NCBI GenBank assembly: GCA_016204995.1
Contig: JACQJR010000001.1
Span: 241,132 to 305,131 of the forward strand
DNA: 64,000 nt
Source of the DNA: Candidatus Microgenomates bacterium
GTDB taxonomy: Bacteria; Patescibacteriota; Microgenomatia; UBA8517; JACQJR01
Reading direction: 5' to 3'
Below the pieces are notes generated by a model. That model did no database searches. It was not told the origin of the DNA and saw nothing but the letters and a program-made list of their open reading frames with translations. A program made the translations under genes and the position numbers. This document shows, one piece after another, positions 3,387 through 58,117 of the stretch. Numbering within the stretch: the stretch's first letter is position 1; every line of letters begins with the position of its first letter.

Positions 3387-4934
3387 TTAATTGCGGTATA
3401 AGTAGAATCTAGAGGTGCCGTCAGGCTCAATAATATCAGCTACTTTTGTAAAAGGGCCAATTTGAGTTTTTTGGCCATCCACATCGTTAAAATGGTAAAG
3501 AATTAAGGTATTTGCTGGCAAACTTTCTAAATTAATATCGGCCGGTTCAAAATAGTAAGTTTGAACCATTAATTGAGTTTGATTATTTTTGATTGTATAG
3601 AAACGCCAATACCGATCAATAAATTCTATCCTGTTATCTAGATAAATAGCTGTAGCTCGTTTTTTTTGATTTTCGACTATCACCCGCTCCAAAGCACCCG
3701 GGATATTATATTTAAACCATTCATAGGATCTAATCCTATAATCCTTCATATAGTCATACCAAAAATAAGCAAATTGTATGAGTATGAGTATAAGTAATAG
3801 ATGGCAGCCAGCACGCAATAAGTAAGATTTATGGGAAATAAGAAATTTAATACCATAGGTGGCTAGAATTATGGCAAAAGGCAGCATTACTAAGGCCCGC
3901 GAAATACGGTAATGGTCTCCTACTAAAGCCGCCGCAATCGGAGAAGTAAAAACCCCTACAATTAATAATAAATTTATCCTTGTTCTCTCTTTAAATGCCT
4001 GATAAATACCTAAGGGTAAAAATATAACCACTGGCCAAAGAAAAACTCCACTTTTAGCAGTTGAATGAATTAAACTGACATCGCCCCTGGTAAAAAGAAA
4101 ATAGGGATCAAAATAAGCTATGAAAATAGCTATTTTATGGATAATATTTTCAGGGGACAGCAGTGAAATTACACCACTAAGGGGATTTAAGTTAGTATCA
4201 TAAAGGCGAGTATAGCGAACTTGATCTATTAAAGTATCGGGGTATTGAACAAGCCAGGGGATGATGGGTAATATAGGCAAAATAAATCCTACTATTAAAA
4301 TAAGAACTAGTTTTTTCTGTTTTTTAATTTGGGGTAAAAGAAAAATAAATGTCATTAATAAATATATAGGCATCATCACTTTTGCAGCATGGTAACTATG
4401 AATACCAATTCCTAAAACCAGACCAGCTAAAAATAACAACCATATTTTTTTCTTATCTAAATAATAAGCCATTAAAAATAGCCAGCCCAACACAAAAGGC
4501 ACAATATATAAATTATCTAGCAAAAGCCGACTTTGGATAAAATGAACCGGCGTTAAGGCCAGTAAAATAGCCGCTATCATCCCCCATTTCTCGCTGCTAA
4601 ATAGCTTTTTGGTTAAAAAATAAATCAATATCACATCTATTATTCCTACCATTACACTGGGTAAACGAATAGTTATTTCTGAAATCGGCATAAACAGCAA
4701 AAATAAAGATGCTAGATAAACTATTATTGGAGTGGCCCACATTACTCCCAAATGCCAAAAATAAAAAGGTAAAAGTCTGCCGTTTTCATCAAAGCCAGTT
4801 TTGGCAACAGAATAAGCGTTTAAGGAGAATCCTAACTCATCTTGGTTTAAATGGACTGGAGTTCTGGCAAGCAAACTACCATACAACAAAGATGACGCTA
4901 GAACCAGAAAAACCAGTATGATGATTTTCTTCAT
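3387..4934 (-). CDS. GT-C fold membrane glycosyltransferase (PMT_2/ArnT-like)
   Basis: 515-aa polytopic ORF; 'NQDELGFSLNAYSVAKTGFDENG' loop analogous to neighbours. Confidence 0.6.
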   Translation of the reverse strand: MKKIIILVFLVLASSLLYGSLLARTPVHLNQDELGFSLNAYSVAKTGFDENGRLLPFYFWHLGVMWATPIIVYLASLFLLFMPISEITIRLPSVMVGIIDVILIYFLTKKLFSSEKWGMIAAILLALTPVHFIQSRLLLDNLYIVPFVLGWLFLMAYYLDKKKIWLLFLAGLVLGIGIHSYHAAKVMMPIYLLMTFIFLLPQIKKQKKLVLILIVGFILPILPIIPWLVQYPDTLIDQVRYTRLYDTNLNPLSGVISLLSPENIIHKIAIFIAYFDPYFLFTRGDVSLIHSTAKSGVFLWPVVIFLPLGIYQAFKERTRINLLLIVGVFTSPIAAALVGDHYRISRALVMLPFAIILATYGIKFLISHKSYLLRAGCHLLLILILIQFAYFWYDYMKDYRIRSYEWFKYNIPGALERVIVENQKKRATAIYLDNRIEFIDRYWRFYTIKNNQTQLMVQTYYFEPADINLESLPANTLILYHFNDVDGQKTQIGPFTKVADIIEPDGTSRFYLYRN

Positions 4935-6187: not shown

Positions 6188-7996
6188 TTATTTTTGAGAA
6201 TTAAGGGTCAACAGGTAAAATGCTGGCTCGCCGGAAGGATAAGCAATGGCCCGGATAAGTTTAAGATTTTTCGGCAGTGTCCCCGGCTCTTGAATAATAT
6301 TGACATTAAATTCCTTAGCATTGGCTAGATAAAGGGTTTTCTCATCTAAAAATTCGGATAAGGAGTAAATTCCGCTTTTAAGAGGGGGGGAGGCAAAATA
6401 GAATTTATCCAGATGAGAAACTAATCCATAACCCGGTAAATCGGTTTTGGGGAAAGGAAAATTTTCCTGCCATTTTTGTGGAGGGTACTGGTAGGCACCA
6501 GCAAAGAAAATCCACGGAGGCTCACCTGCAGTTGAAATAATAATTTTGTCAAAATTATTTTCCTCCGCTTTAATTGTTTTAACAGCCTCTTGCCAGCCAA
6601 AATGCCACCATCTCTCACTTTCCCACGGATAGTGCACCCAAAAACTGTGTTGGTAAAGTATAAATGTTAAAACATATACTCCACCTATAGCCAAGGCTAC
6701 AGTTTTTTTCCACCTAGCAGATACATTAAGCCAAATCCCATAAACACCAAAGGCAATTAAAAATATTAAAGTAGGTAGCAGGAAAAATAGGCGGGTGGCA
6801 TGCATTCCACCATCACGAGTTAGAACAGCTGGAATAGGGGCTGCTAATATCCAAAATACAATTAAGGTTTTCATCTTGCCATTAACAGGAGAAACTATAA
6901 AGAAGGCGAGACCTGCCAGCAGGAAAATTAAATCAATCCTATAAAGCTGACCCATTTCGTTTAAGGAATGCCTTAAATTTAAATCTCCCTGAATAAAAAG
7001 AAATTGAGTGGAAAAAACTTGCAAATAGTTACGGACAAACATATTCCACCAGTAAAGCAATTTATTATGAAATACCCTATCAACTAAACTAGGTTGAGCG
7101 CCAAACTTAACATCGGGGTCAGCCACTTTAGCATCACGTAACCTATCCCAGCCAATTTGAGGCACTACAGTCGGATCAGTAAAAATAGACAAATAAGAGA
7201 AGCGGGCAGTACCACCGCCAAAGACCGTGCTATAAGCAATAGGACTACCCACTAAGAATAAAGCAACCACTGACCACAGTAGCCATTTTTTCCCTGCTTT
7301 AAATATTTCCTTCCGGTAAATCAATACCAACGCCGTCAGAAACAAAGGCATAAAGAGCTTAGCCGTACTATAAACCCACGGAGTTAGAGCAAAACATGCA
7401 GCAGACCACGGCAGCCATTTTCCATTTTTCAGTCCACGTAAGAAAAACCAAAGGCCGGCTAGAAAAAATGTCAACATTTGTGTCACTTCAAACCCCGCCC
7501 GGGAGTATTGAATATGCCAAGGAGAAATGGCTAGGAAAAGGGCGGCAAGGATTGGCAAAGACGGGTGGCGGGGGCGGAGGGAGTCCCGACGAGTGCCCGC
7601 AGCGTTCAGCGAGGACATCGGGCGGGACGAGCCCCCGGCAGGACCCGTCGTCCCCTTTAATAATTCCGATATTAATGAATAAAAAATCCAAACTCCTAAA
7701 ATTCCAAAAATGGCGGCTGGAAGTCTTACCCCCAAAGGAGAAATGCCAAAAAGAGCCACCGTTGGTACGGCACTATATAAATAAAGGGGAGTTCTCCATT
7801 CGGCAAGGGACTGAAAATGGAGTGGCATAAAGTTACCAGAATAATCACGACCTGTTTTCAAAATTGAATATGCTTGATAGCCGAGATCCAACTCATCTCC
7901 AAACAAGGAAACCGGTACCTGATCCAGCCGCCATAATCTTAAAAATGAAGCAATTAACAAAATTCCAACGAGCAATAATGGTATCTTCTTTAGCAT
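6188..7996 (-). CDS. GT-C fold membrane glycosyltransferase, GT39/PMT_2 family, carrying in-frame GC-rich element
   Basis: 602-aa ORF; 'FGDELDLGYQAYSILKTGRDYSG' loop; cytoplasmic loop interrupted by ~34-aa 'GTTGPAGGSSRPMSSLNAAGTRRDSLRPRHPSLP' absent from paralogue 1693..3369. Confidence 0.7.
   Translation of the reverse strand: MLKKIPLLLVGILLIASFLRLWRLDQVPVSLFGDELDLGYQAYSILKTGRDYSGNFMPLHFQSLAEWRTPLYLYSAVPTVALFGISPLGVRLPAAIFGILGVWIFYSLISELLKGTTGPAGGSSRPMSSLNAAGTRRDSLRPRHPSLPILAALFLAISPWHIQYSRAGFEVTQMLTFFLAGLWFFLRGLKNGKWLPWSAACFALTPWVYSTAKLFMPLFLTALVLIYRKEIFKAGKKWLLWSVVALFLVGSPIAYSTVFGGGTARFSYLSIFTDPTVVPQIGWDRLRDAKVADPDVKFGAQPSLVDRVFHNKLLYWWNMFVRNYLQVFSTQFLFIQGDLNLRHSLNEMGQLYRIDLIFLLAGLAFFIVSPVNGKMKTLIVFWILAAPIPAVLTRDGGMHATRLFFLLPTLIFLIAFGVYGIWLNVSARWKKTVALAIGGVYVLTFILYQHSFWVHYPWESERWWHFGWQEAVKTIKAEENNFDKIIISTAGEPPWIFFAGAYQYPPQKWQENFPFPKTDLPGYGLVSHLDKFYFASPPLKSGIYSLSEFLDEKTLYLANAKEFNVNIIQEPGTLPKNLKLIRAIAYPSGEPAFYLLTLNSQK
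7558..7652. repeat. GC-rich palindromic element, copy A (in-frame within GT39 gene)
   Basis: GACGGGT at 7560-7566 and ACCCGTC at 7643-7649 (reverse complements); internal hairpins (GGGACGA..TCGTCCC); GC-rich in AT-rich CDS; shares GACGGGTG...GCGG.GGGAG.CCC.ACG...GGCAGGACCCGTCG with copy B. Confidence 0.6.
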
Positions 7997-16668: not shown

Positions 16669-17493
16669 TCAATTTTTCTGCTGTTGCATTTCCCATAACT
16701 TGGCATATCTGGCAAAAACACTATAACCTTGGTAAAAAGAGAAAATAATACCGGCGGTTCCATCTAAAAATCCTAGTTTTAAAATTAACCGGCCCCATAC
16801 TTCACTTACTACTGGTCTAACAAATCTCCACCATGTCATTTTTGGATGACCGCTATCGTACAATAATTTTGCTTCTATTTCTGACCATTTATTAGTTTTT
16901 TTAATCATATCTTCTAAATTATCCTCTTTTAAATGAATGAAAGCATTTTTTAAATAACCAATTTCTCCCTCAATTTTTGGCTGCTCATGTAATTCTCCTT
17001 CCCAACGGATTAATTTATCTTTTTTAATCAAACGAATGACATAATCAGGGTACCAGCCGCCGTGGCGTAATTCTTTCCCAAAAACAAAATTACGTCTCGG
17101 AATAGCAAAAGCCGCCGGTGACGGGTGACTCGCGGCGGGGAGCCCCACGGAAGGGGCCCCAGAGTTGTTACCTGGTGGAATGGCCGTGGGGCTGCCGCGA
17201 GGCAGGACCCGTCGGCTGATTTCCTCACGTAATTCCAGAGTTACTCTCTCATCTGGATCAATATAAAATAGCCACTCACTTTTTGCCACCTCTTTTCCCT
17301 GATTTCTCCAAGTATCATAACTACCAGCTTTTTGTTTAAAAATTCTGGTGCCATATTTTTTGGCAATCTCTAAAGTTTTATCAGTTGACCCAGCGTCCAA
17401 GATAATAATTTCTCCTAAATCTTTTGCTGATTCCAAACAATCAGTTAATTTTTCAGCCGCATTTTTGGTTAAAATAATTACTGAAATATTCAT
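16669..17493 (-). CDS. GT2 family glycosyltransferase carrying in-frame GC-rich element
   Basis: 274 aa; 'ISVIILTKNAAEKLTDCLESA...IIILDAGSTDKT'; ~32-aa insert 'LPRGSPTAIPPGNNSGAPSVGLPAASHPSPAA' absent from paralogue 18398..19294. Confidence 0.75.
   Translation of the reverse strand: MNISVIILTKNAAEKLTDCLESAKDLGEIIILDAGSTDKTLEIAKKYGTRIFKQKAGSYDTWRNQGKEVAKSEWLFYIDPDERVTLELREEISRRVLPRGSPTAIPPGNNSGAPSVGLPAASHPSPAAFAIPRRNFVFGKELRHGGWYPDYVIRLIKKDKLIRWEGELHEQPKIEGEIGYLKNAFIHLKEDNLEDMIKKTNKWSEIEAKLLYDSGHPKMTWWRFVRPVVSEVWGRLILKLGFLDGTAGIIFSFYQGYSVFARYAKLWEMQQQKN
17118..17215. repeat. GC-rich palindromic element, copy B (in-frame within GT2 gene)
   Basis: GACGGGT 17120-17126, ACCCGTC 17207-17213; internal inverted repeat CCCCACGG..CCGTGGGG; same orientation and reading frame ('HPS' tripeptide) as copies A and C'. 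Confidence 0.6.
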
Positions 17494-18401
17494 GAGTTAA
17501 AACTCCCCTTCCCTAAATTTCCCAAATAATAATCTATCACTCCCCGTTTCTGCCATTTTCTGCCATTAAAAAGTAAGCGGATTGATTCACGCAGCAGGGC
17601 AAATTTAGCTCTCATATTGGCGTATCTAGCAGCAAACAACAGACGATTTCTGGTAATATAATAATCGTTTAAGCTGCTGCCGATGCCTGAACTTTGGGCC
17701 ACTTTATGCCAAAGAATTGCTTTAGGGTTATAAATAATTTTAAAACCGGCTTGTTTTGCCCTTTGGCAAAAATCAGCATCTTCCAAATATAAAAAATAAT
17801 TTTTGTCAAAAAAACCAATTTTGTTAAACACTTCTTTGTTAACAAATAAGCAGGCTCCTGTCGCATAATCTATTTCGCTAGTTTCGTTATATTGCCCTTT
17901 ATCTACCTCATCCACTCCCTGATGTGACAGTAAAACATTCTTCCAATCAATTAAACCACCAGCATACCAAATCACTTTCCCCAGCTCATCTTTTTTATAC
18001 CTACTTTTATGAAATTCAAACCCATTGGCGAAATATATTTTAGGTGATACTATTCCTGCAACAGGATATTTTTCTATTGTTTTAATTAATTGAATGGCTA
18101 AGTTTTTATCTACCACCGTATCATTATTAAGAATCATTACATAATCTGCCTCGTCCTCTAAAGCGGCTCTAATTCCCACATTATTCCCTTCCGCATAGCC
18201 CAAATTCTCCTTGTTTTCTATAATTTTGCACTTTGCACTTTGCACTTTTAACTCTTCCACCAATCCATCTTTACTTCCATTATCCACTACATAAATTGAT
18301 AATTGATAATTGATAATTGATAATTTTTCAATGCTCTCTAAACATTGCATGGTATCTCTTTTGCCATTCCAATTAAGGATTACAATCGCTACTTTTTTCA
18401 T
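17490..18401 (-). CDS. GT2 family glycosyltransferase
   Basis: 303 aa; 'VAIVILNWNGKRDTMQCLESI...VVDNGSKDG...ENKENLGYAEGNNVGI'; contains two perfect heptamer tandem repeats (18225-18248, 18294-18325). Confidence 0.8.
   Translation of the reverse strand: MKKVAIVILNWNGKRDTMQCLESIEKLSIINYQLSIYVVDNGSKDGLVEELKVQSAKCKIIENKENLGYAEGNNVGIRAALEDEADYVMILNNDTVVDKNLAIQLIKTIEKYPVAGIVSPKIYFANGFEFHKSRYKKDELGKVIWYAGGLIDWKNVLLSHQGVDEVDKGQYNETSEIDYATGACLFVNKEVFNKIGFFDKNYFLYLEDADFCQRAKQAGFKIIYNPKAILWHKVAQSSGIGSSLNDYYITRNRLLFAARYANMRAKFALLRESIRLLFNGRKWQKRGVIDYYLGNLGKGSFNS
18225..18248. repeat. (TTTGCAC)x3 heptanucleotide tandem repeat in GT2 CDS
   Basis: perfect; degenerate homologue at ~10900 in paralogue. Confidence 0.7.
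18294..18325. repeat. (AATTGAT)x4.5 heptanucleotide tandem repeat in GT2 CDS
   Basis: perfect; encodes 'LSIINYQLSI'. Confidence 0.7.
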
Positions 18402-19294
18402 TTTGTCAGCCTGCGGAGAACTTTGGTAAGAATAGTGGGTCTTCTCATTCTTTTAGCAACTAACCAATGATCAATTTCTCCTTCGGCAGCGGCTATTTCA
18501 TTATTAACTTCATGCGGATTAAGATTTATGACTTCAAATTTAGCCAGTTCCCAAATTTTTAAATATAATACCAACTCTGAAAACGATTGCAGCAAACAAA
18601 CAGCCAATCCATGCACCCCATCTTTATAGCCTTCTCCCGCTAAAAATCTGCTAACAAATTCTCCGCTGGGTTTGGCAATTAAATCACGCCAGTTAAATTT
18701 ATAACCATCTTCTATTTTAAGTTTCGCTTGAACCGTAGTGTAACGATCAAGTCTCGCTAAATATTGCGATATTGATTGATAGTTGTGATGAACAATGGCT
18801 AAAGGTTCTTCATCTGGCAGATCTTGACCTATACCATGAGTTTCTGGCACTGAATGAATAAGCTCACTCCATAAAACCTGATCTTTTTTAAAAAAACGGA
18901 TATTATAATCCGGCCACCAGCGGGCATGCCTAATCCACTGCCCAAAAATTATATTCTTGCGGGGTAGGCGATAAAAATCAGCCTCACTATCCTGGCTTAT
19001 GCTCTGCAATTTTTTAGCTAATCTATCGGGAATTTCCTCATCAGCATCCAAAATTAAAATCCAGTCGCCCGTGGCTTTACTAAGAGCAAAATTGCGGGCC
19101 GGCTCCACATAACCAATATACTTATGATTAAAGACTTTCGCTCCCAGTTTTTTAGCTATCTCTTTAGTATCGTCGTTAGATTCCATATCTACTACTATAA
19201 TTTCACTAGCTAAATTTTTTATTGAGGCAATGGCCCGAGGTAAGTTTTTCTCTTCATTCCAGGTATTAATGACAACTGATATATTAGACATCAT
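18398..19294 (-). CDS. GT2 family glycosyltransferase
   Basis: 298 aa; 'ISVVINTWNEEKNLPRAIASI...IIVVDMESNDDT...ILILDADEEIP'; paralogue of 16669..17493. Confidence 0.75.
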   Translation of the reverse strand: MMSNISVVINTWNEEKNLPRAIASIKNLASEIIVVDMESNDDTKEIAKKLGAKVFNHKYIGYVEPARNFALSKATGDWILILDADEEIPDRLAKKLQSISQDSEADFYRLPRKNIIFGQWIRHARWWPDYNIRFFKKDQVLWSELIHSVPETHGIGQDLPDEEPLAIVHHNYQSISQYLARLDRYTTVQAKLKIEDGYKFNWRDLIAKPSGEFVSRFLAGEGYKDGVHGLAVCLLQSFSELVLYLKIWELAKFEVINLNPHEVNNEIAAAEGEIDHWLVAKRMRRPTILTKVLRRLTK

Positions 19295-19311: not shown

Positions 19312-21045
19312 TTAGTTCACGCGATATATAACCACTTCTTGATTTTCAAATATGTTAGTTAGCCCTAATTGGCCCTCGCCTAGACGAAAACGTTGGCCAA
19401 AAACCGGTGTTTGATTTAATACCAGATAGAGATAATGAATTTTGTTATCAGCCAAGAATTTTTGCACCTCTTCCTGATTAAGACTATCAAAAGGCAGCAT
19501 TGATTTCTCCCGTCTGTTTCTCCAATCAAAACCGGTAATATTTAAATTAATTTCATCTTCCAGATAAGTGGGATGTTGGGAGAAGGCTGACACATAGGCA
19601 CTAGAGGCATATAGATAAAGCGGCCTAGGAGGATTATTGACCGCCAGTTCTGCTTTATATTCATCAAAAGGATAAGTTAAAACCACGCCTTGCGGTTGCT
19701 TTTCCAAAAATTTGAGAGCCGCTAGCTCCTGGTGGGAAATTTTAGCCGGCGGCCGCATTGGCAAATAACTAAGGCTCAAAGTACCAATCGTGGTCGACAA
19801 AGTTAATAAAACTACTAAAATAATAAGCCAGGTTTTTTGTTGAGCCAACCAAATTCCGGATAATATGGACATCACAAAAAGTGAATAGTAAAAAAATTGA
19901 ATTGTATTCCAAGGGGTGCCGGATTGCAAAAAAAACATGGGCAAAATTATTCCCAATGAGGCCATCACTAATAAAAATAAATCTATCTGGCTAAATTTTC
20001 TCCATAATTTATTCTTGATGATTCCATATACTCCCACCACCCTAGTTCCCATATTACCCACTAAAAATATTAAAAATGCTATAAAATAAGCCGGAATAAG
20101 CTTAAGAAAAATATGGCCAGTTTTATAATTCATTAATGCCTCATAAAATCTGGGCCAGCCAAATCTATCCGATACCGCCATCATGGTTTCCAAAAACCAG
20201 AAAGGCTGGAAAACGATCATTTTTTGTGAACCGCTATTTAAGGGCAAAAAAAGTAGCATGGATAAAACTGCTGATCCGCCAAATATAGATAAAAATGTAA
20301 ATTTACCACTTTTAATTAATTGATAGATACCAATTACCAGAAGACCTGCTAAAGCCAAAATACCAGCATAAATTTTAATTTCTGCCAGCAAACCAAAAAA
20401 AATAATTGCCAATGCTAAATGCCAAATGCTAAATTTGTTTTTGAGTTTTAAAATTAAAATTGCGCCCGAGAGAAGCAGAACTAACGACATGGCAAACGGT
20501 GGATTAATCAATGTGGAAATAGATTGCTGCGACCAAAAAAGTGATTCTCCGCCAATTTGTTTATTACGAATTAAAGTCACAATCCAACCAAAATCTCCCG
20601 CAAAATAGACAAAAAAAGTGGCCCATAAGGCCTCACGGGAAGAATTTCGCCATAACATTACAAATCTATAAGTCAGCCAACCAACCAAAACCGCCAAAAG
20701 CGTTGGTAAGATTTGAAAATAAAGTGTAATGGCAGGGATTTGTGTTAATTTATGAATCCAAGCTAGTATTAAATCAAAGCCAATGTGATAGTTGCGAATA
20801 TTTTCCCCGGAAAAAATCGGCATTTCCCAAGAACCGCGAGATAAACTATTAATCAAGGCAAGATGCCAGACTCCATCATGACCATTCGGCCCCCAAAAAC
20901 CCATCCCAAAAGGATAAATCAAACCGCTTTTGACCATGGTTAAACTCCAACTTAAAGAGCCCAAGAAAATAACTAACAGAATAGATAAATTATTTTTTCT
21001 TAAAAGTGGCATAAATAGTTGTAAAATCTCGCCAAATTTGGCCAC
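19312..21045 (-). CDS. polytopic membrane protein, function unknown (possibly Wzy-like polymerase/ligase)
   Basis: 577 aa, >10 hydrophobic segments plus C-terminal soluble domain; located immediately downstream of wzx-like gene; no diagnostic motif recognised. Confidence 0.35.
   Translation of the reverse strand: MAKFGEILQLFMPLLRKNNLSILLVIFLGSLSWSLTMVKSGLIYPFGMGFWGPNGHDGVWHLALINSLSRGSWEMPIFSGENIRNYHIGFDLILAWIHKLTQIPAITLYFQILPTLLAVLVGWLTYRFVMLWRNSSREALWATFFVYFAGDFGWIVTLIRNKQIGGESLFWSQQSISTLINPPFAMSLVLLLSGAILILKLKNKFSIWHLALAIIFFGLLAEIKIYAGILALAGLLVIGIYQLIKSGKFTFLSIFGGSAVLSMLLFLPLNSGSQKMIVFQPFWFLETMMAVSDRFGWPRFYEALMNYKTGHIFLKLIPAYFIAFLIFLVGNMGTRVVGVYGIIKNKLWRKFSQIDLFLLVMASLGIILPMFFLQSGTPWNTIQFFYYSLFVMSILSGIWLAQQKTWLIILVVLLTLSTTIGTLSLSYLPMRPPAKISHQELAALKFLEKQPQGVVLTYPFDEYKAELAVNNPPRPLYLYASSAYVSAFSQHPTYLEDEINLNITGFDWRNRREKSMLPFDSLNQEEVQKFLADNKIHYLYLVLNQTPVFGQRFRLGEGQLGLTNIFENQEVVIYRVN
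20409..20434. repeat. 13-bp direct repeat CAATGCTAAATGC/CAAATGCTAAATT in CDS
   Basis: followed by TTTTTGAGTTTTAAAATTAAAATT; within 19312..21045. Confidence 0.5.
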
Positions 21046-22564
21046 CCAATAAAATATGAAGCATGGCTATATAAGATAACAAACCTACTATTACTAAAAT
21101 AATTACTCCCAGCCAATTTAAGGTAATAAGATTACCAGTTATAAACATCACCAAAGCCATGCCAATACTAGCTGTCAAAGGATAGCCTACGCTTTCCAAT
21201 AAAACTACATTGACAAAACGTTTACTCCACACAATTGCCACAATTGAACTTATTCCCACTAACATAAAACCTAATGCCGCCCCATTAATAGAATAGCGGC
21301 TAGCCAGCAAAGGAACAAAAATCCATGTTAAAACAGTCCACATCACCATCAAGCGAAATGTAACGGCAATTTTACCGATACTGTTAAGCATATTAGTTAA
21401 AGGCGTGGAGACCGCTGCAAAAGCCGAGTTAACACTGATGAAAGCCAAAGCCAAAAGAGCCGGCTGCCATTGGGCGTATTTGGGAATTAAATGGGTTAAA
21501 GGTTCAGAAACAAACACCAAACCGACCAAAGCCGGAAAGACCAGCAAACAGATAAAGAAAAGTGAACGCGAGACCGCATTGGCTAGCTCTCTTTTCTCAT
21601 GCTGCATCCGGGAAAAAGCCGGAAAAGTCACTTTAATCACCTGGTCCATAAAAAATCGTAGCGGTGCTTGCGCCCATTTTTGGGCCCAACCCAAAAGACC
21701 GATACCGGCCGGGCCGATAATACCGCCTAAGACTAAGGTCATACCATCATCCTTGACCATCGCCAGCATAGTATTAGCCTGATAAGGCAAACCAAATTTT
21801 AATAATCCCCCTAAATATTGCCTATTCCATAAAAATCCCGGCTGCCAGGGCCGCAAAATATAAATTATCACTACTCCCACTATGCCCCGAGCTACCACCG
21901 CCACTGTAAAACTAGTAATACCAAAGCCCTGCCAGGCTAAAATTACGGCTATACTGTAAAAAACAATCGTCTCGGCAATTTGGGGAATAATTAATTTGTT
22001 AAATAACAATTCCCGTTCCAGTAAGACCGAGGGAATAGTTTTTAAAGAGGATAAAAAGAGAGAAAATGTTAAAGCCCACAGCAAGTATACCGAAGGCTGG
22101 GAAAGTTTATACCAGTTCTGAAAAAGGGGAGTTAAAGAAAAAATTAGAATAATTACTCCTAATACCAATATCTGTTGTACTGTAAAAACAGATTTTAATT
22201 CGCGCTTATCCAGCCGGTCTTTTTTTTGAATTAAAGCTGCGGCCAAGCCGATATCAGAAAAATAGGCAAAAAAGTTAATGACTGCTGAAACCAAAAAGAA
22301 AACTCCAAATTGAGTTGGAGTTAAAAAAATTGTTAGTAAAAATGTAGCCAGTAACGCTATTACCTGAAGAATAAAAGTCCGGCCGGTTAAAGCCACTACT
22401 CCCTTAACTGCCCGTCTCTTAACAGTCTCCAGAGATATTTCCTCGGTAGGACCCGTGCTGAGCCCAGCCGAAGCATCCAGATGTTCGGCAGCAGTAATCC
22501 CCACCCCTAAATTGTAGCAGAAATCCGCATTACACCATACCTTTAATTTGTTAAAATTATTCAT
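20990..22564 (-). CDS. wzx: Wzx-like oligosaccharide flippase (MOP superfamily polysaccharide biosynthesis protein)
   Basis: 524 aa, 12-14 TM; 'TIFLTPTQFGVFFLVSAVINFFAYFSDIGLAAALIQKKD' typical Wzx/RfbX N-terminal region; first ~45 aa (GC-richer) may be 5' UTR rather than coding. Confidence 0.7.
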   Translation of the reverse strand: MNNFNKLKVWCNADFCYNLGVGITAAEHLDASAGLSTGPTEEISLETVKRRAVKGVVALTGRTFILQVIALLATFLLTIFLTPTQFGVFFLVSAVINFFAYFSDIGLAAALIQKKDRLDKRELKSVFTVQQILVLGVIILIFSLTPLFQNWYKLSQPSVYLLWALTFSLFLSSLKTIPSVLLERELLFNKLIIPQIAETIVFYSIAVILAWQGFGITSFTVAVVARGIVGVVIIYILRPWQPGFLWNRQYLGGLLKFGLPYQANTMLAMVKDDGMTLVLGGIIGPAGIGLLGWAQKWAQAPLRFFMDQVIKVTFPAFSRMQHEKRELANAVSRSLFFICLLVFPALVGLVFVSEPLTHLIPKYAQWQPALLALAFISVNSAFAAVSTPLTNMLNSIGKIAVTFRLMVMWTVLTWIFVPLLASRYSINGAALGFMLVGISSIVAIVWSKRFVNVVLLESVGYPLTASIGMALVMFITGNLITLNWLGVIILVIVGLLSYIAMLHILLGGQIWRDFTTIYATFKKK

Positions 22565-27859: not shown

Positions 27860-29317
27860 TTATTGAATCTTCGCCACTATGGATTTGATTTCAGTGGAAA
27901 GAATATCTTTCGGAATACCGCCTAAATCTTCATAGAAAACTTTGAGGTTGAAATCGTGATATAACAATTGCAGGGCGTCGGAATTATTTAAAATATAAGC
28001 AGCTTGGCGGGAACTACCTCCCCAATCGCCAGAAATTTTCGGGTAACTGGGATCATTTACGAAATAAACTATGGCACCCTTGGGTAAAGTTGGATAAGTA
28101 GTTAAAACGTTATTAATTAATTTCTCGGCAATCCTACCACGAACTGCCGCCGGATAAGTTCGATCACCCAATTTAATTGACGTCACTGACAACACCACCA
28201 AAGAAGTAATTAAAATCACTTTCAATAAATTCATTTTATTAGAGAAAATTAGATAACCTATCACTCCCCAAAAAGCCGGCAGGGCTGGTGCTAAATAGTA
28301 AGTTGATTTATGAAGTGGAAGTAAAATTACCGGCGAGATAGCTATGGGAAACCAAAATAGTAGAAAGATAAATTTTTTGTCTAGTAAAGCTGATTTATTT
28401 TTTCGCCACAAGTTAATTATAAAAATAATTATTAATCCGATTGATAAGAAAAATGCCGGGAAAATAATTTTAAAATAATCTCCCCAAAATTTCATTAAGT
28501 TTGGATTAAGCGATAACTTGGGGCCAATAAAATCAATCAGCATTTCCGGCATACCCGCCGCCCACACAGTGTACCAGGCAAAGGAATTAATTATTTTTGG
28601 CAGAGAAAATACTGCCTGGTATTGAGCATCTTTTTGTAAAAGACCAATTTTGACAAAATCCAGATAGATAAAAATTAACAGTATCAGGAAAAAAGGCCAG
28701 ACCATTTTGATATTTTTTCCTTTAATCCAAACCATTCCCAGCATCAAGAAAGGCGTGGTAATTGCCAACTCATGCGAGGCTAGTGATAGTAGAAAAACAA
28801 CTAGCGATAAAATCCACCATTTTATTTTTCCCTCTTGGAGATATTGCCACCAGCAAATTAGAGTTAAGAGCATGAACATGGTGACTCCCAAAGCTTGAAT
28901 TCCACCGGCCAAATAATAAAGCAGTGCTACATTCGCAGCAGTTATCCTAAAGAAAAAAGCTGTGAATAGCGATAAAAACTTTTTGGCAAAAATTTTCTGC
29001 ATTAATGTATAAACCAGTACTGTATTAATTAAATGAATGGATATTGACAGTAGGCGAAATGGTAAATGATTAAGACCGAATAATTGATAATAAATATTAA
29101 ATAATCCTTCCCGGAAAACAGGCCGGTAAAAGGCATAGCCTCGCTCGGAAAAACTGGGAAAGCCAAATAAATTGATAAAACTTTCTAGCTTGCCATCAGT
29201 TAAACTGGCTTTAAAATGAAAAAAATCATCCTGGGAAAAATAAACTCCCAAAACGGGAGAATAAATCCACAAAACAAAAAGGCAGACTAAAATAAGAGGC
29301 CACCACCTACTTAACAT
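27860..29317 (-). CDS. polytopic membrane protein, putative GT-C fold glycosyltransferase
   Basis: 485 aa; 'FSQDDFFHF...GYAFYRPV' acidic first loop; many TM helices. Confidence 0.45.
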   Translation of the reverse strand: MLSRWWPLILVCLFVLWIYSPVLGVYFSQDDFFHFKASLTDGKLESFINLFGFPSFSERGYAFYRPVFREGLFNIYYQLFGLNHLPFRLLSISIHLINTVLVYTLMQKIFAKKFLSLFTAFFFRITAANVALLYYLAGGIQALGVTMFMLLTLICWWQYLQEGKIKWWILSLVVFLLSLASHELAITTPFLMLGMVWIKGKNIKMVWPFFLILLIFIYLDFVKIGLLQKDAQYQAVFSLPKIINSFAWYTVWAAGMPEMLIDFIGPKLSLNPNLMKFWGDYFKIIFPAFFLSIGLIIIFIINLWRKNKSALLDKKFIFLLFWFPIAISPVILLPLHKSTYYLAPALPAFWGVIGYLIFSNKMNLLKVILITSLVVLSVTSIKLGDRTYPAAVRGRIAEKLINNVLTTYPTLPKGAIVYFVNDPSYPKISGDWGGSSRQAAYILNNSDALQLLYHDFNLKVFYEDLGGIPKDILSTEIKSIVAKIQ

Positions 29318-31058
29318 GAGAAAGTTTAAAACTGTGTTTTCTTTTCCACAAGATACGAAGCAAGATAAACCAAGAAATTAAGGAAATCATATTACCCACA
29401 GTGCGAATAGGAGTATTAGTCAGTCTCACTTCCAGTTTATGATCTCCCTGGGGAACCAATAAACTAATTCTAGCTAAATCATCCTTAGGCAGAACTTTAA
29501 TTTCTGTCTTTTTGCCATCTATCCAGGCTTTCCAATTAGGAAAGTTGAAAATATTAACAACCACTGTCGCATTATCAGAATTAACCTTTATGTTAGTTTT
29601 TAACCAGTTCGTACCTTCTTTTGTTTGACTAAATTCAGCCTTACCACTGTCTATCTCCAATGGTTCTTTACGAGCTGACTGTGGGGCAATTCTAGCACCC
29701 TTTGGCAAGTAATCATAAATACCGGCTGTTTGCTGCAGTCTCCAAGCCTCTCCGGAAAATTTTTCCTGATCTGTGACCGGCCCGGTTCTTTCTACTCTAA
29801 AAAAGTTGAAATTAAAAATAATTAAAAATATTAGTAACGCAGAAATAATTGCTTTGCCTATCACACGTAAAGGAGCTAGTAATACGACAAGGGCTCCGGC
29901 TAAAAAGCTTAAGGAAAAAATAGTCAAAGTTAAAAAGCGCCAGGGGAATTGGACTATAGACAAAAATGGAAAGGTTAACCAAATCGGCGTAGATCGACTA
30001 TGAGCCATAAAGGCTGCTCCAATACCCACCACCAGCAGAAAACCAACCAAAGCTACCAAATTAAGGTTAAATTTCTTTTTCTTTTTAAAAATGATGCTCG
30101 CTATAGTGAGCACTACAATTACCAAAGCCAGTATCCAATGAACATGGCCGACGGGAAAAGCCATTCCGTCTCCATCCATCCAGACCGAAGCCCCATAGCC
30201 CCAAAAACGAGAGAAGAATAATTGCTTAAAAGTGGCAAAATGGGCAATATACTCATAATATCCTTGAGTCAAAGTCTCCACATGTACTAAATTTTTCTCA
30301 AAAAAGACCGGCAAGGTAAAAAAGGCTGCCAGTCCTATTCCCCAAATTCCCCCTATAGCCAGCATGGGTACTTTATTAAATTTACCTGTGCGCCATAACC
30401 ACCATAGAGACCAGACCGCCAGGACCGGCGTAAATATCAGAACCATGATGTTATGTGACAACAATAATGCTGCCCAAGCAAGAGCTAAAATCATCACCCA
30501 TTTCAAAATTGAAGACGGGTGATCCCGCTTAGCGGGAGCAGGACTCGTCGAAACAATTAATTTATAAGTGCTCCATAAAAGTAAAGGAAACCAAACTAAA
30601 GCCCAACTCTCATTCATAGCTCCCCTAACAAAAACATCTAGGGCATGATATGGCGCCCAAATATAAAAAGTCGCCGAGACTACCCCACCAAAACGTCCCC
30701 AAAATTCTTTGGCCAGTAAATACATCGTAAAACCAGAAAGCATTATGCTTAGTAAAAAGATAATTTTGGCAACCTCGGTAAAATGAAAACCGACTAGTCT
30801 AAATACTTGTCCAACAAGATATGGCAATGGAGGATAATAGTTAAATAGGGGGAAACCGTAGCCATATCCCATATCCGGCACCCAACGGCAAGGGATTTGT
30901 AAGTCTTTAAAACATTTCTCAAGTTGTAGTTGTCTCATCATCTGCAAATCATCATGCATGGGAAAATATCCCGGCAATAATAAATCGCGTGAGGCCAAAA
31001 GACTAATAAAAATTAGCAGTATAGGTACCCAAAATTTCGTCAACCACTTAACTATCAT
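29307..31058 (-). CDS. PTPS-related (PF10131-like) polytopic membrane protein, putative GT-C
   Basis: 583 aa; 'PMHDDLQMMRQLQLEKC' HDxxxH/R N-terminal loop; paralogue of 60472..62103; carries 12-aa in-frame mini GC element. Confidence 0.5.
   Translation of the reverse strand: MIVKWLTKFWVPILLIFISLLASRDLLLPGYFPMHDDLQMMRQLQLEKCFKDLQIPCRWVPDMGYGYGFPLFNYYPPLPYLVGQVFRLVGFHFTEVAKIIFLLSIMLSGFTMYLLAKEFWGRFGGVVSATFYIWAPYHALDVFVRGAMNESWALVWFPLLLWSTYKLIVSTSPAPAKRDHPSSILKWVMILALAWAALLLSHNIMVLIFTPVLAVWSLWWLWRTGKFNKVPMLAIGGIWGIGLAAFFTLPVFFEKNLVHVETLTQGYYEYIAHFATFKQLFFSRFWGYGASVWMDGDGMAFPVGHVHWILALVIVVLTIASIIFKKKKKFNLNLVALVGFLLVVGIGAAFMAHSRSTPIWLTFPFLSIVQFPWRFLTLTIFSLSFLAGALVVLLAPLRVIGKAIISALLIFLIIFNFNFFRVERTGPVTDQEKFSGEAWRLQQTAGIYDYLPKGARIAPQSARKEPLEIDSGKAEFSQTKEGTNWLKTNIKVNSDNATVVVNIFNFPNWKAWIDGKKTEIKVLPKDDLARISLLVPQGDHKLEVRLTNTPIRTVGNMISLISWFILLRILWKRKHSFKLSHVK
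30514..30549. repeat. GC-rich palindromic element, short form C' (in-frame within PTPS-related gene)
   Basis: GACGGGTG-atCCCGCTtAGCGGGag-caGGACtCGTCG; termini as in A/B around a perfect 6+6 palindrome; encodes 'STSPAPAKRDHPSS' absent from paralogue 60472..62103. Confidence 0.5.
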
Positions 31059-51489: not shown

Positions 51490-52408
51490 TCAAATTTCTT
51501 CTCCTTCATGCATTTTTTCATTATACCCAACTTCTCTTTTTTTCACAAAGGTAAAAGCAGCTGCCGCCAGTAAACATACACCTCCACCAATTAAAAGAAT
51601 AGGTACCAGAGGAATTCGTCCGCCGAAGACAAACCAGCCGGCTACCTGGGCGGATTCAGGAGTGGCGGAGGGCGAAGAGGTTTGGGCTGCTAAAATTTCC
51701 GGCGAGTTAGTAGGAGTGGCAGATGCTTTGGAACTTAGGCCGGGCGACGGCGTGGGAGATGATGTCTTAGTTGGACTTGGAGTTGGTGATTTGGTGGGAG
51801 TAGGACTGGGAGTTTTGGTGGAGGAAGGAGAAGGGGTAGGTGTGGAAGTTGGAGTAGCAGTGGGTGTCGGAGTTGGAGTGGGTGTAGGAGAATCGGTGGG
51901 GGGTCGGGGTGGGGGTTGCAGAAACGGTAATATTAAGAGTAGTAGAATTATCAGCCCAGGTGGGGCCACTGCCGGCTTGAGTGTATCTGCCTACTTTTAA
52001 GGTGTAGCTTGCTTCTCCTTTGTAATATGAACTTTCCGCATCCGGCTTCACCTCTATGGTGCCGCTCCAGGAATTATCGGAATTCATGGTAATTTGATAA
52101 AACTGGGTGTAATCAAGGGGAGAAGGTTTACCGTTATACCAGGAGCCGGCATTATTTTTGGTATAGCCAAAGTAAGAAGATGGCGCATCTGGGTGGGCTA
52201 AAGCCGCTCTTAAATAATAATTATTGCCAGCAGAATTACTAATAGTTAAACTGATAGTAACCGAGAATGATTCATTATCCGCCACACTGGCCGGAACATT
52301 GCTAATGCTAAAGGCGGCTTGCGCTTTATGATGAAAAGTAAATAAAAACAGTAACGAAGAAATCATTAAGACGAAAATGAAATTAATCGTCTTTAGAAAA
52401 TAACTCAT
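51490..52408 (-). CDS. secreted cell-surface protein (signal peptide, beta-rich domain, Pro/Thr linker, C-terminal TM anchor); apparent frameshift in linker
   Basis: ORFs 51767..52408 and 51490..51969 overlap in different frames within GC-rich (PT)n-coding DNA; N-terminal signal '[22 protein letters not shown]'; C-terminal '[19 protein letters not shown]'. Confidence 0.4.
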
Positions 52409-57469: not shown

Positions 57470-57499
57470 CTCTACACTTTTATCATATCACACCGCAAG

Positions 57500-58117
57500 T
57501 TATGGTGTGGCGGTAGGAGTGGGCGTGGGGGAAGGAGTGGGCGAAGCAGTCGGACTAACGCTTGGCTTAGGTGTGGAGCTGGCTGTCGGCTTGGACGTAG
57601 CGCCCTTCCTTAAACCAGTAACAATGACTACCTCAAAACTGCCGGTGGCAGTAGTCACTCTATTCACAGTCGCGTAATTATCTTCTAAAATAGTAATGAT
57701 CTCATCCTGAAAATCCGCCGGCACAGTTTCGCTAAAAGAAACTGTAGTTTCTTTGTTATCTTTGGTATCCGCATTACCTGTTTCCACATTGGTATAACCC
57801 GCTGCAGTTAATTTATCTTTAGCTTTGCCTGCTTCGCCGGCGACACCAGTTCCATTTAATACCTGGATTTTAACATCTTCTTTGGCCATAGCCGGAGTGG
57901 GACTCGGAGTTACTTCGGAGATCGGCGTGGGGCTGGGAGTAGCTTCTATGGTACCACCAGTCTTACCCAGTAAAAAATAACCTCCAGCGACTAAACCTAT
58001 TAATATTAAAATCACTATAATAGGTAAAATGGGGAATTTCTTTTTTGATTCCCAGCTAGAAAAGGTTTGGGCTTGGACAGGAGTTTGACTAGAAGATTCT
58101 TTTGTCTCTTCTTCCAT
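57500..58117 (-). CDS. LytR_C (LytR cell-envelope-associated C-terminal) domain protein with PT-rich tails
   Basis: 205 aa; TM anchor, 'DVKIQVLNGTGVAGEAGKAKDKLTAAGYTNVETGNA...TTVSF' LytR_C signature; flanking Pro/Thr/Ser linkers. Confidence 0.55.
   Translation of the reverse strand: MEEETKESSSQTPVQAQTFSSWESKKKFPILPIIVILILIGLVAGGYFLLGKTGGTIEATPSPTPISEVTPSPTPAMAKEDVKIQVLNGTGVAGEAGKAKDKLTAAGYTNVETGNADTKDNKETTVSFSETVPADFQDEIITILEDNYATVNRVTTATGSFEVVIVTGLRKGATSKPTASSTPKPSVSPTASPTPSPTPTPTATP

Follow-up and report, generated by a model that had tools for sequence, protein, structure and literature searches.

Introduction

Palindromic repeats lying in frame inside unrelated protein genes were reportedly described in Rickettsia by Ogata and colleagues in 2000 and 2002, and these Rickettsia palindromic elements (RPEs) are said to comprise RPE-1 to RPE-8. 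Yeast mitochondria, whose genomes are very AT-rich, harbour GC clusters and byp elements, which are mobile GC-rich hairpins present in coding regions. Here we analyse a 64-kb stretch of a Candidatus Microgenomates genome (37% GC; contig JACQJR010000001.1), all 64,000 nucleotides of which are called the window below, and in which a GC-rich palindromic element, designated copy B, is read in frame within a gene for a GT2 glycosyltransferase. On our reading, to which we assign a probability of roughly 70%, copy B is one of three copies in the window of a family of non-autonomous hairpin mobile DNA elements, which is mobilised as a single strand and read through in genes. The family is found widely among bacteria with small genomes (Microgenomates, Saccharibacteria, other Patescibacteria and Omnitrophota), and it occurs also in Planctomycetia and some other phyla.

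RPEs are mentioned in PMC3733652. Repetitive extragenic palindromes (REPs), bacterial interspersed mosaic elements (BIMEs) and the REP-associated tyrosine transposases (RAYTs, or TnpA-REP), including the CGTC-tagged and the intragenic REPs, are treated in PMC3733652, PMC3333891 and PMC6006769. A REP is 20-40 bp long, with a stem of 8-9 bp, a loop of 4-5 nt and an unpaired GTAG/CGTC tag at one end, and intragenic REPs are established, with tRNA synthetase and repair genes named as sites (PMC3733652). HUH/Y1 enzymes are believed to act on REPs in the form of single-stranded hairpins, and CGTC-type REPs have no known dedicated transposase. For the insertion sequences (ISs) of the IS200/IS605 group, the lagging-strand template is the site of both excision and insertion, and they are oriented in genomes in line with replication (PMC5027513).

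Copy B and Its GT2 Host Gene

The GC-rich palindromic element placed at 17118-17215 by an initial annotation of this DNA was confirmed, and its core could be delimited (Table 1). Copy B is 94 nt long with a GC content of 72%, forms a long nested hairpin and, in its sense orientation on the minus strand, runs GACGGGTCCTGCC...AGTCACCCGTC. The termini that it was said to share with a second palindrome, copy A, are indeed common to both. The window holds exactly two instances of the pattern GACGGGTG...GGACCCGTC, with 0 expected from 100 shuffles; the two copies have exact termini of 8 nt and 14 nt in common, and the 14-mer GGCAGGACCCGTCG is found unchanged at 7637-7650 and 17201-17214. Copies A and B are also the top two GC islands of the window (0.77-0.82 versus 0.373 overall). 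Copy B contains three nested inverted repeats: one of 7 nt (17120-17126/17207-17213, 100%), whose arms pair as stem P1, one of 11 nt (17126-17136/17194-17204, 91%) and one of 13 nt (17138-17150/17184-17196, 92%), the arms of which include the previously annotated internal inverted repeat CCCCACGG/CCGTGGGG. Folded as single-stranded DNA, the region reaches -34.9 kcal/mol for the minus strand (z = -5.6) and -36.7 kcal/mol for the plus strand (z = -5.3), and 0 of 200 shuffles attained the fold energy. R1, a covariance model of the family introduced below, gives copy B 55.9 bits on the minus strand (E = 1e-10) and 8.9 bits on the plus strand. Copy B is not an assembly artefact, because an identical host protein is encoded on the independent Logan assemblies SRR12113384 and SRR12113430, with an NCBI source also listed.

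The translation of the host open reading frame (ORF) contains the peptide quoted in the initial annotation, ...EEISRRVLPRGSPTAIPPGNNSGAPSVGLPAASHPSPAAFAIPRRN..., and copy B encodes about residues 95-127 of the enzyme, between a helix (86-96) and a strand (128-131). The match to Pfam PF00535 covers residues 4-85 only, compared with residues 6-140 in the paralogue encoded at 18398-19294. In an alignment of 37 sequences most GT2 orthologues, which are mostly about 248-260 aa long, lack the copy B segment, and the segment does not align to a conserved domain in the homologues. Some orthologues retain just short 'GP...RHP' remnants, the length of this loop varies among GT2 homologues, and the copy B peptide is of low complexity. 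The suggestion that the extra segment separates blocks contiguous in the paralogue holds as far as the net excess is concerned, which BLASTP shows as one 26-residue gap at copy B; the blocks themselves are not strictly contiguous, as the paralogue has its own linker of roughly 20 residues, and the alignment of orthologues is the stronger argument. The AlphaFold model of the GT2 protein, built on the orthologue alignment, has a mean predicted local distance difference test score (pLDDT) of 92 and a predicted template modelling score (pTM) of 0.85, and residues about 97-127 appear as coil with pLDDT of 53-62. According to this model, copy B is predicted to add a roughly 31-residue disordered loop to an otherwise well-folding GT2 enzyme. 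The data support the view that copy B is a repeated palindromic element, non-native to GT2.

Syntenic glycosylation clusters of related Microgenomates were used for comparison (loci are cited here by their L numbers). The GT2 linker is occupied by an element of type B in the window, of type A in L004 and of type C in L003 and L005, at differing nucleotide offsets. The same loop is also filled in a more distant GT2 homologue (L129), and it is empty in the related genomes L125 and L126, where 39 kb contain no element copy. Since three subtypes sit at differing offsets in one linker, a permissive loop fits better than a recognised site. The linker copy of the related genome L003 (L003:10329-10483) is a composite of 155 nt in which one 5' terminus (CGGGGTCCTACC) is followed by another (GGCGGGTCCTGCC); it has the look of a nested or tandem insertion, and the resulting GT2 protein has 312 aa.

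Architecture and Distribution of the Family

The covariance model R1 was built from family members and applied to 809 kb of loci. It identified 131 copies, about 25 of them outside the exact pattern, and it also recovered copies with divergent termini that were absent from its training set. The sense consensus of the family is (C)GACGGGTCCTGCC ... (G/C)(T/C)CACCCGTC. The basal stem comprises 7 bp, GACGGGT pairing with ACCCGTC, and its outer three pairs can covary, as seen in the compensated P1 variants GGCGGGT/ACCCGCC, GGTGGGT/ACCCACC, AGCGGGT/ACCCGCT and GATGGGT/ACCCATC. The heart of the element is invariant and is composed of GGGT, a 3-nt CCT bulge and GCC, facing GTC and ACCC, and it includes a single conserved C.T mismatch; the bulge and the adjacent mismatch are retained in essentially all family members. 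In copies not chosen by pattern the outer three P1 pairs are likewise compensated, and GGGT-CCT-GCC / GTC-ACCC is fixed. The stem beyond the bulge opens with G-C, C.T and C-G and continues in freely varying, GC-rich sequence; what comes next is often an internal loop rich in pyrimidines and then another stem. Total element length ranges from 34 nt to about 155 nt.

Pairing in the stems is kept in 95.4% of cells versus 79% in shuffles. The covariation score amounts to 0.401, compared with 0.103 in shuffled alignments (reached by 0 of 500) and 0.03-0.08 with slid partners, and 332 double-sided changes were counted in the stems. Wobble pairs make up about 10 of 1948 cells in the covarying stems, and owing to this near-absence DNA, or a structure needed on both strands, fits better than RNA. 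A flank consensus is seen within Saccharibacteria only and differs elsewhere. The geometry of an archaeal intron of the bulge-helix-bulge type was considered for the minimal copy L112 (34 nt) and rejected: the copy has a single 3-nt bulge, and the opposite strand lacks the second one that would be expected at a distance of 4 bp.

A scan for the exact termini in species-representative genomes (one per species) returned at least 119 stretches. Among the matches listed, most belong to Saccharibacteria/Nanosyncoccus, and the others include Roizmanbacteria, Doudnabacteria, Omnitrophota, Planctomycetia, Nitrospirales and Dormibacteraeota, as well as some metagenome-assembled genomes of Proteobacteria and Actinobacteria. 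The exact-pattern matches L022, L052, L063, L069 and L074, which come from GC-rich genomes and one archaeon and are not recovered by the model, were set aside as chance. Roizmanbacteria contain subfamilies with several near-identical copies per genome, resembling bursts of proliferation. Copies that by eye align closely with copy A lie in six different genes of different genomes; A-type sites include the GT2 linker in L004, another gene in L003 and, on metagenome contigs from groundwater and other sources, three more genes, and the metagenome scan for this type returned 6 contigs representing 3 distinct sites, each in two assemblies. A scan of metagenomes for the B-type inner stem gave 0 matches. 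The exact termini had 0 matches in viral contigs, and blastn in 'distant' mode against plasmids and phages gave no match. No account of the element turned up in a literature search that also covered its terminal sequences as text, and in the literature searched the family is apparently undescribed.

Host Genes and Reading Frame

Gene context was counted for 136 copies in low-GC loci. Half of them (68/136) are situated deep in long ORFs, 34 in the sense and 34 in the antisense direction of the host gene, and the remaining 68 lie between genes or at gene ends, or are ambiguous. The element-bearing genes include those of isoleucyl-tRNA synthetase (two sites), tyrosyl-tRNA synthetase, exonuclease I, MiaA and a methyltransferase; the first four are examples of essential hosts. 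The isoleucyl-tRNA synthetase genes of Saccharibacteria carry up to two copies (L023:3996-4077 and 4251-4332; also L056, L055, L060 and L073), all antisense, at two sites that are filled or empty independently of each other depending on the species. Just upstream of this gene in L023 there is a weak T-box-like match (44.6 bits, gathering score 93).

In three filled-versus-empty alignments of Saccharibacteria species the net coding inserts were 102, 96 and 81 nt, all multiples of three; a fourth coding comparison, done by codon reading, gave a net insert of 84+9 nt, and an insert of 115 nt was counted in an intergenic comparison. Orthologous gene sites are either empty or filled by elements with different inner stems. 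Intragenic copies use several reading frames, copy B being the sole deep-ORF copy seen in its frame, and the encoded peptides differ by frame, with no peptide motif conserved across frames.

The initial annotation proposed that the element targets unrelated genes while always maintaining an open frame. Related copies in unrelated genes and in-frame read-through were both found; 'always' and 'targets' are not supported for the family as a whole, given the copies outside long ORFs, the L053 copy, which has no open frame at all, and the even split between the two gene orientations. The best interpretation of the open frame is selection and not targeting: surviving intragenic copies would be in frame because those that break the frame or the fold were removed by selection.

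Orientation and the Replication Strand

The orientation of the element obeys the replication strand, not the gene. With the elements masked, 80 of 100 loci have the sense sequence on their G-rich strand (Mann-Whitney p = 1.3e-9), and element strand shows no relation to coding strand (p = 0.6). A logistic fit gave +2.7 per standard deviation for skew versus -1.1 for coding bias, and the skew of the sense strand remains positive even inside genes on the opposite strand. The signal is at its strongest in Saccharibacteria, which obey the skew rule in 64 of 75 loci. Neighbouring copies are co-oriented 31 to 3, and loci of the same contig are co-oriented over up to 120 kb. The copies of L003-L005 conform to the rule, and the metagenome contigs with A-type copies agree with it in 6 of 6 cases, which represent only three distinct sites. 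The Omnitrophota contig L010, one of only three loci of mixed orientation, bears a 140-nt long variant (L010:4060-4199) whose orientation is opposite to that of a normal copy 236 bp away.

The window has a skew of -0.10, and all three of its copies, being on the minus strand, conform to the rule. Plus-strand GC skew is negative in every 8-kb block of positions 1-64000 (-0.05 to -0.15), and the minus strand carries every ORF listed in the examined regions. From this it appears that a single replichore contains the whole window and that these genes are co-directional with replication.

The G-rich strand is the template of lagging-strand synthesis. As the sense strand is G-rich and the bias is like that of IS200/IS605, we infer that the active form would be the bulged hairpin when it is on the lagging-strand template.

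Other Copies and Features of the Window

With filters off, the covariance model finds exactly three copies in the window (Table 1). Copy A encodes ...TTGPAGGSSRPMSSLNAAGTRRDSLRPRHPS..., an insert to which nothing corresponds in three homologues sharing 21-32% identity (alignment including L003 and L004). The third copy is a miniature that retains both termini and a 6-bp hairpin; in sense orientation it reads GACGAGTCCTGC-TCCCGC-TAA-GCGGGA-TCACCCGTC, and it encodes STSPAPAKRDHPS. Its host ORF is the orthologue (60% identity) of an L003 gene that bears a full-length A-type copy and shows a weak match to Pfam PTPS_related. The site of the miniature is orthologous to that of the full-length copy L003:1749-1859 and is empty in L126, and the miniature is read as an apical-deletion derivative.

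Table 1. Coordinates of the element copies in the window and of the genes that carry them.
Feature	Position	Strand	Evidence or description
Copy B core	17120..17213	-	exact pattern match, covariance model, nested inverted repeats, DNA fold
Conserved 3-nt bulge of copy B	17204..17206	-	CCT on minus, AGG on plus; between stems P1 and P2
Host gene of copy B, GT2 glycosyltransferase, 274 aa	16669..17493	-	ORF, Pfam PF00535, orthologue alignment, AlphaFold model
Copy A, A-type, 90 nt, 77% GC	7560..7649	-	pattern match; R1 60.8 bits
Host gene of copy A, PMT_2 (GT39-like) membrane glycosyltransferase, 602 aa	6188..7996	-	ORF, Pfam PF13231
Miniature third copy, 36 nt	30514..30549	-	approximate-termini search; R1 with filters off 31.1 bits, E = 3.5e-5
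Host gene of the miniature copy, 583-aa membrane protein	29307..31058	-	ORF; alignment

A GC-rich segment at 22440-22512, in the N-terminal part of a Wzx-like ORF (20990-22564), contains the terminus-like GGTAGGACCCGTGC, and the encoded ...STGPTEEISLE... is kept in orthologues. The 14-mer at 22445-22458 was rejected as an element copy, being conserved coding sequence of the Wzx N-terminus with no hairpin. Further GC islands, at 51601-51932 and 57483-57959, reach 0.67-0.70 and are G/T-rich, the plus strand showing GGAGT/GGTGT-like runs; they probably represent minus-strand coding sequence of low complexity, and the covariance model has no match there.

Proposed Mechanism and Alternative Explanations

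In the mechanism that we propose, the element landed in a permissive loop after the DxD helix of the GT2 glycosyltransferase, where the insert would be transcribed and translated as a disordered Pro/Gly/Ser/Ala-rich loop, while copies breaking the frame or the fold would be purged by selection. The single-stranded hairpin on the lagging-strand template would be the acting form, and a trans-acting enzyme would recognise the bulged heart. Movement might proceed by peel-and-paste single-strand transposition, as in IS200/IS605 and REP/RAYT, or through a related hairpin-recognising recombinase. After insertion the apical part may erode by deletion, giving rise to miniature copies and to the short 'GP...RHP' remnants. 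Judged from comparison of the sequences, the copies in unrelated genes, the recurrent filling of one loop and the remnants appear to show proliferation, recurrent occupation and decay. Only tentatively do we extend this to a structure-defined family of single-stranded DNA elements in several phyla, in which one invariant bulged-helix motif would be read by a putative enzyme and the element mobilised on the lagging-strand template, colonising essential genes, remodelling loops and offering a potential replichore marker.

Several observations weigh against single-strand mobilisation of a read-through element. No transposase or recombinase was found in the ORFs of the loci. A phmmer search of 5,504 ORF segments of the loci with an IS608 TnpA seed (validated against PDB 2a6m) gave no match, although distant RAYTs would escape such a search; clustering of all loci ORFs returned as recurrent families host genes and ordinary neighbours, with no transposase, and a search for a long autonomous version, with element halves 0.14-6 kb apart, yielded noise only. 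Neither target-site duplication nor a fixed target motif was resolved, the filled-versus-empty pairs being 72-82% identical and too diverged for the junctions to be read. IS200/IS605 has two distinct subterminal hairpins, and the element a single long one. Simple peel-and-paste does not predict the copy-specific outer flanks, perfectly complementary over up to 11 bp, that many copies have; flanks complementary over at least 3 bp accompany 32 of 126 copies versus about 3 expected (examples are L054:4962-5042, L113:3985-4081, L016:4042-4116 and L031:600-693), and they may have arisen by template switching, or where the element entered the loop of a short hairpin already in place. Outside Saccharibacteria the skew rule is followed in 17 of 26 loci (p = 0.17), and in one contig, CAVQQD010000003.1 of a Gammaproteobacteria metagenome-assembled genome, the copies at 120-128 kb (L043) and 552-560 kb (L091) are on opposite strands with positive skew at both. 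Copy B is the only B-type copy known. Five GT2 homologues are filled in one loop, which could reflect targeting, or gene conversion of one old insertion, in place of random insertion and subsequent selection. Finally, translation of the insert is deduced from conservation of the frame.

Among the alternatives, a double-stranded cut-and-paste transposable element of the miniature inverted-repeat kind (MITE) would have its 7-bp terminal inverted repeat bound by a DDE transposase encoded elsewhere, and its strand bias would be secondary, due for example to clamp-directed targeting or to selection. Terminal inverted repeats of this length are present, the element is small, non-autonomous and multi-copy, and several IS families are reported to show orientation biases with respect to replication (PMC5027513). 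The intergenic comparison of L061 with L092 revealed a possible 3-bp CAT repeat at the junctions; the other comparisons showed no consistent target-site duplication, and no transposase was seen in the loci. Conservation, moreover, peaks at the asymmetric bulge and mismatch, which are present only in the folded single strand, while the outermost bases covary freely. A MITE is disfavoured because a reader of double-stranded terminal repeats would not preserve this asymmetry of the arms, and we consider it improbable.

It is also unlikely that the element is a replication-oriented DNA signal beneficial to the host, such as a lagging-strand priming site, a Chi/KOPS-like sequence or a hairpin terminator, which would spread by recombination and whose intragenic copies would be tolerated. 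Its orientation follows GC skew, as that of Chi and KOPS does, the invariance of the heart across phyla suggests a conserved reader, and several intergenic copies bracketed by A-runs/T-runs resemble bidirectional terminators (L016, L075, L100 and L024). Against such a role, the close relatives L125 and L126 do without the element, copies erode to miniatures and remnants, half of them reside inside ORFs, in essential genes where the signal is not needed, and the near-identical copies of Roizmanbacteria have the appearance of bursts.

We give still less credence to an element acting at the RNA level, that is, a small intron, a translational bypass ('hop') like mitochondrial byps, or a regulatory mRNA hairpin, in which case either no extra peptide would ever be produced or it is in the transcript that the hairpin would have its effect. 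The hairpin in the mRNA would be strong, and there is a precedent in a yeast mitochondrion, where GC-rich hairpin inserts in coding regions of an AT-rich genome are reportedly bypassed according to Lang and colleagues (2014). Nevertheless, the model separates the strands sharply (56 versus 9 bits) while both gene orientations are equally common, net inserts are multiples of three and contain no stops in the host frame, which would be unnecessary were the insert removed, and wobble pairs are nearly absent. The use of two gene orientations together with the kept frame argues against an intron, an intein or a bypass element, each of which needs one fixed orientation; removal of the insert, a single orientation and indifference to frame were not what we found. 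Rfam returned 0 matches for the whole window at the gathering threshold, no match overlapping the element in five element-bearing loci at E up to 1, and noise only (10-13 bits) for copy B at E up to 10.

The notion of an immobile, lineage-specific, low-complexity GT2 loop resembling copy A by chance or compositional bias, which the low-complexity peptide and the variable loop length of GT2 homologues might have favoured, is effectively refuted by the exact termini common to copies A and B where 0 matches are expected, by the same architecture in 131 copies elsewhere, by a GC content about twice that of the genome and by the absence of the segment from most orthologues.

Comparison with Described Systems

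The behaviour of the element is closest to that of RPEs and intragenic REPs, and its inferred mechanism is closest to that of IS200/IS605 and REP/RAYT. Like RPEs, it is a palindromic repeat of about 100 bp, found in frame in unrelated protein genes, including essential ones, where it adds surface peptides that would be translated; both also have intergenic copies, show decay, lack a known transposase and inhabit small-genome, host-dependent bacteria. In-frame palindromes in unrelated ORFs with a tolerated read-through peptide, as expected of an RPE-like element, were found here. By the descriptions of RPEs, however, the element is set apart by its occurrence outside Rickettsia, in several phyla, and by its one invariant heart. 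It is moreover GC-rich in AT-rich genomes and uses two reading directions and several frames. We know of no report of a replication-strand orientation of RPEs. The host being a Candidatus Microgenomates, the element is at most an analogue of RPEs.

REPs resemble the element in being GC-rich hairpins repeated many times and in part intragenic, and its GACG...CGTC termini recall CGTC-type REPs. In contrast to REPs, the element measures 34 to about 155 nt and has multi-segment stems with a conserved internal bulge, and its GACG/CGTC are paired inside the basal stem P1, leaving no unpaired tag. It thus does not have the structure that defines a REP, and in the 8-kb segments around copies and the 64-kb window no REPtron-like arrangement was seen, nor any IS608-like Y1 protein.

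With IS200/IS605 and the palindrome-associated transposable elements (PATEs) the element shares a folded single strand as the likely substrate, a bias towards the lagging-strand template (PMC5027513) and no clear target-site duplication. The orientation bias known from PATEs was found in 80 of 100 loci, whereas the two subterminal hairpins, the fixed target tetra-/pentanucleotide and the cognate TnpA were not: no TnpA was found near element copies, and no fixed target tetranucleotide. The ends of IS200/IS605 have two different subterminal hairpins with guide and cleavage tetranucleotides, and the element is a single hairpin from end to end.

The attC sites of integrons are similar in that the substrate is a folded single-strand structure, short boxes or extrahelical bases are conserved while the central stem covaries, and strand choice is tied to replication. 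The element is not an attC site: it differs from attC by the lack of R''/R' boxes (RYYYAAC / GTTRRRY), cassette arrays and integrase context and by the dispersal of its copies in genes. The byps of yeast mitochondria break the frame and are skipped by the ribosome, whereas the element keeps the frame, is apparently translated and is located in bacterial chromosomes.

Conclusions

What appears to be new here is a family of in-frame 'coding palindromes' found in several phyla, with a single invariant bulged heart and an orientation that follows the replication strand. A selfish hairpin of this kind persists even in genomes that are among the smallest and most streamlined of bacteria, and in genes such as that of isoleucyl-tRNA synthetase. 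The 'coding palindrome' phenomenon of Rickettsia would then be general to reduced genomes and not a matter of one genus. The invariance of a 10+7-nt bulged motif across phyla, amid covarying stems, implies a conserved protein that would read folded single-stranded DNA at the replication fork, and such a protein could turn out to be a hitherto undescribed single-strand recombinase, HUH-type or otherwise, which would be attractive as a tool for DNA insertion.

There are also practical consequences. The GC-rich islands inflate or distort protein predictions and alignments in the genomes of candidate phyla, and should be masked or annotated. The orientation of the element could help to orient the contigs of metagenome-assembled genomes. 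Repeated insertion in one GT2 loop, in turn, maps positions at which a protein tolerates insertions.

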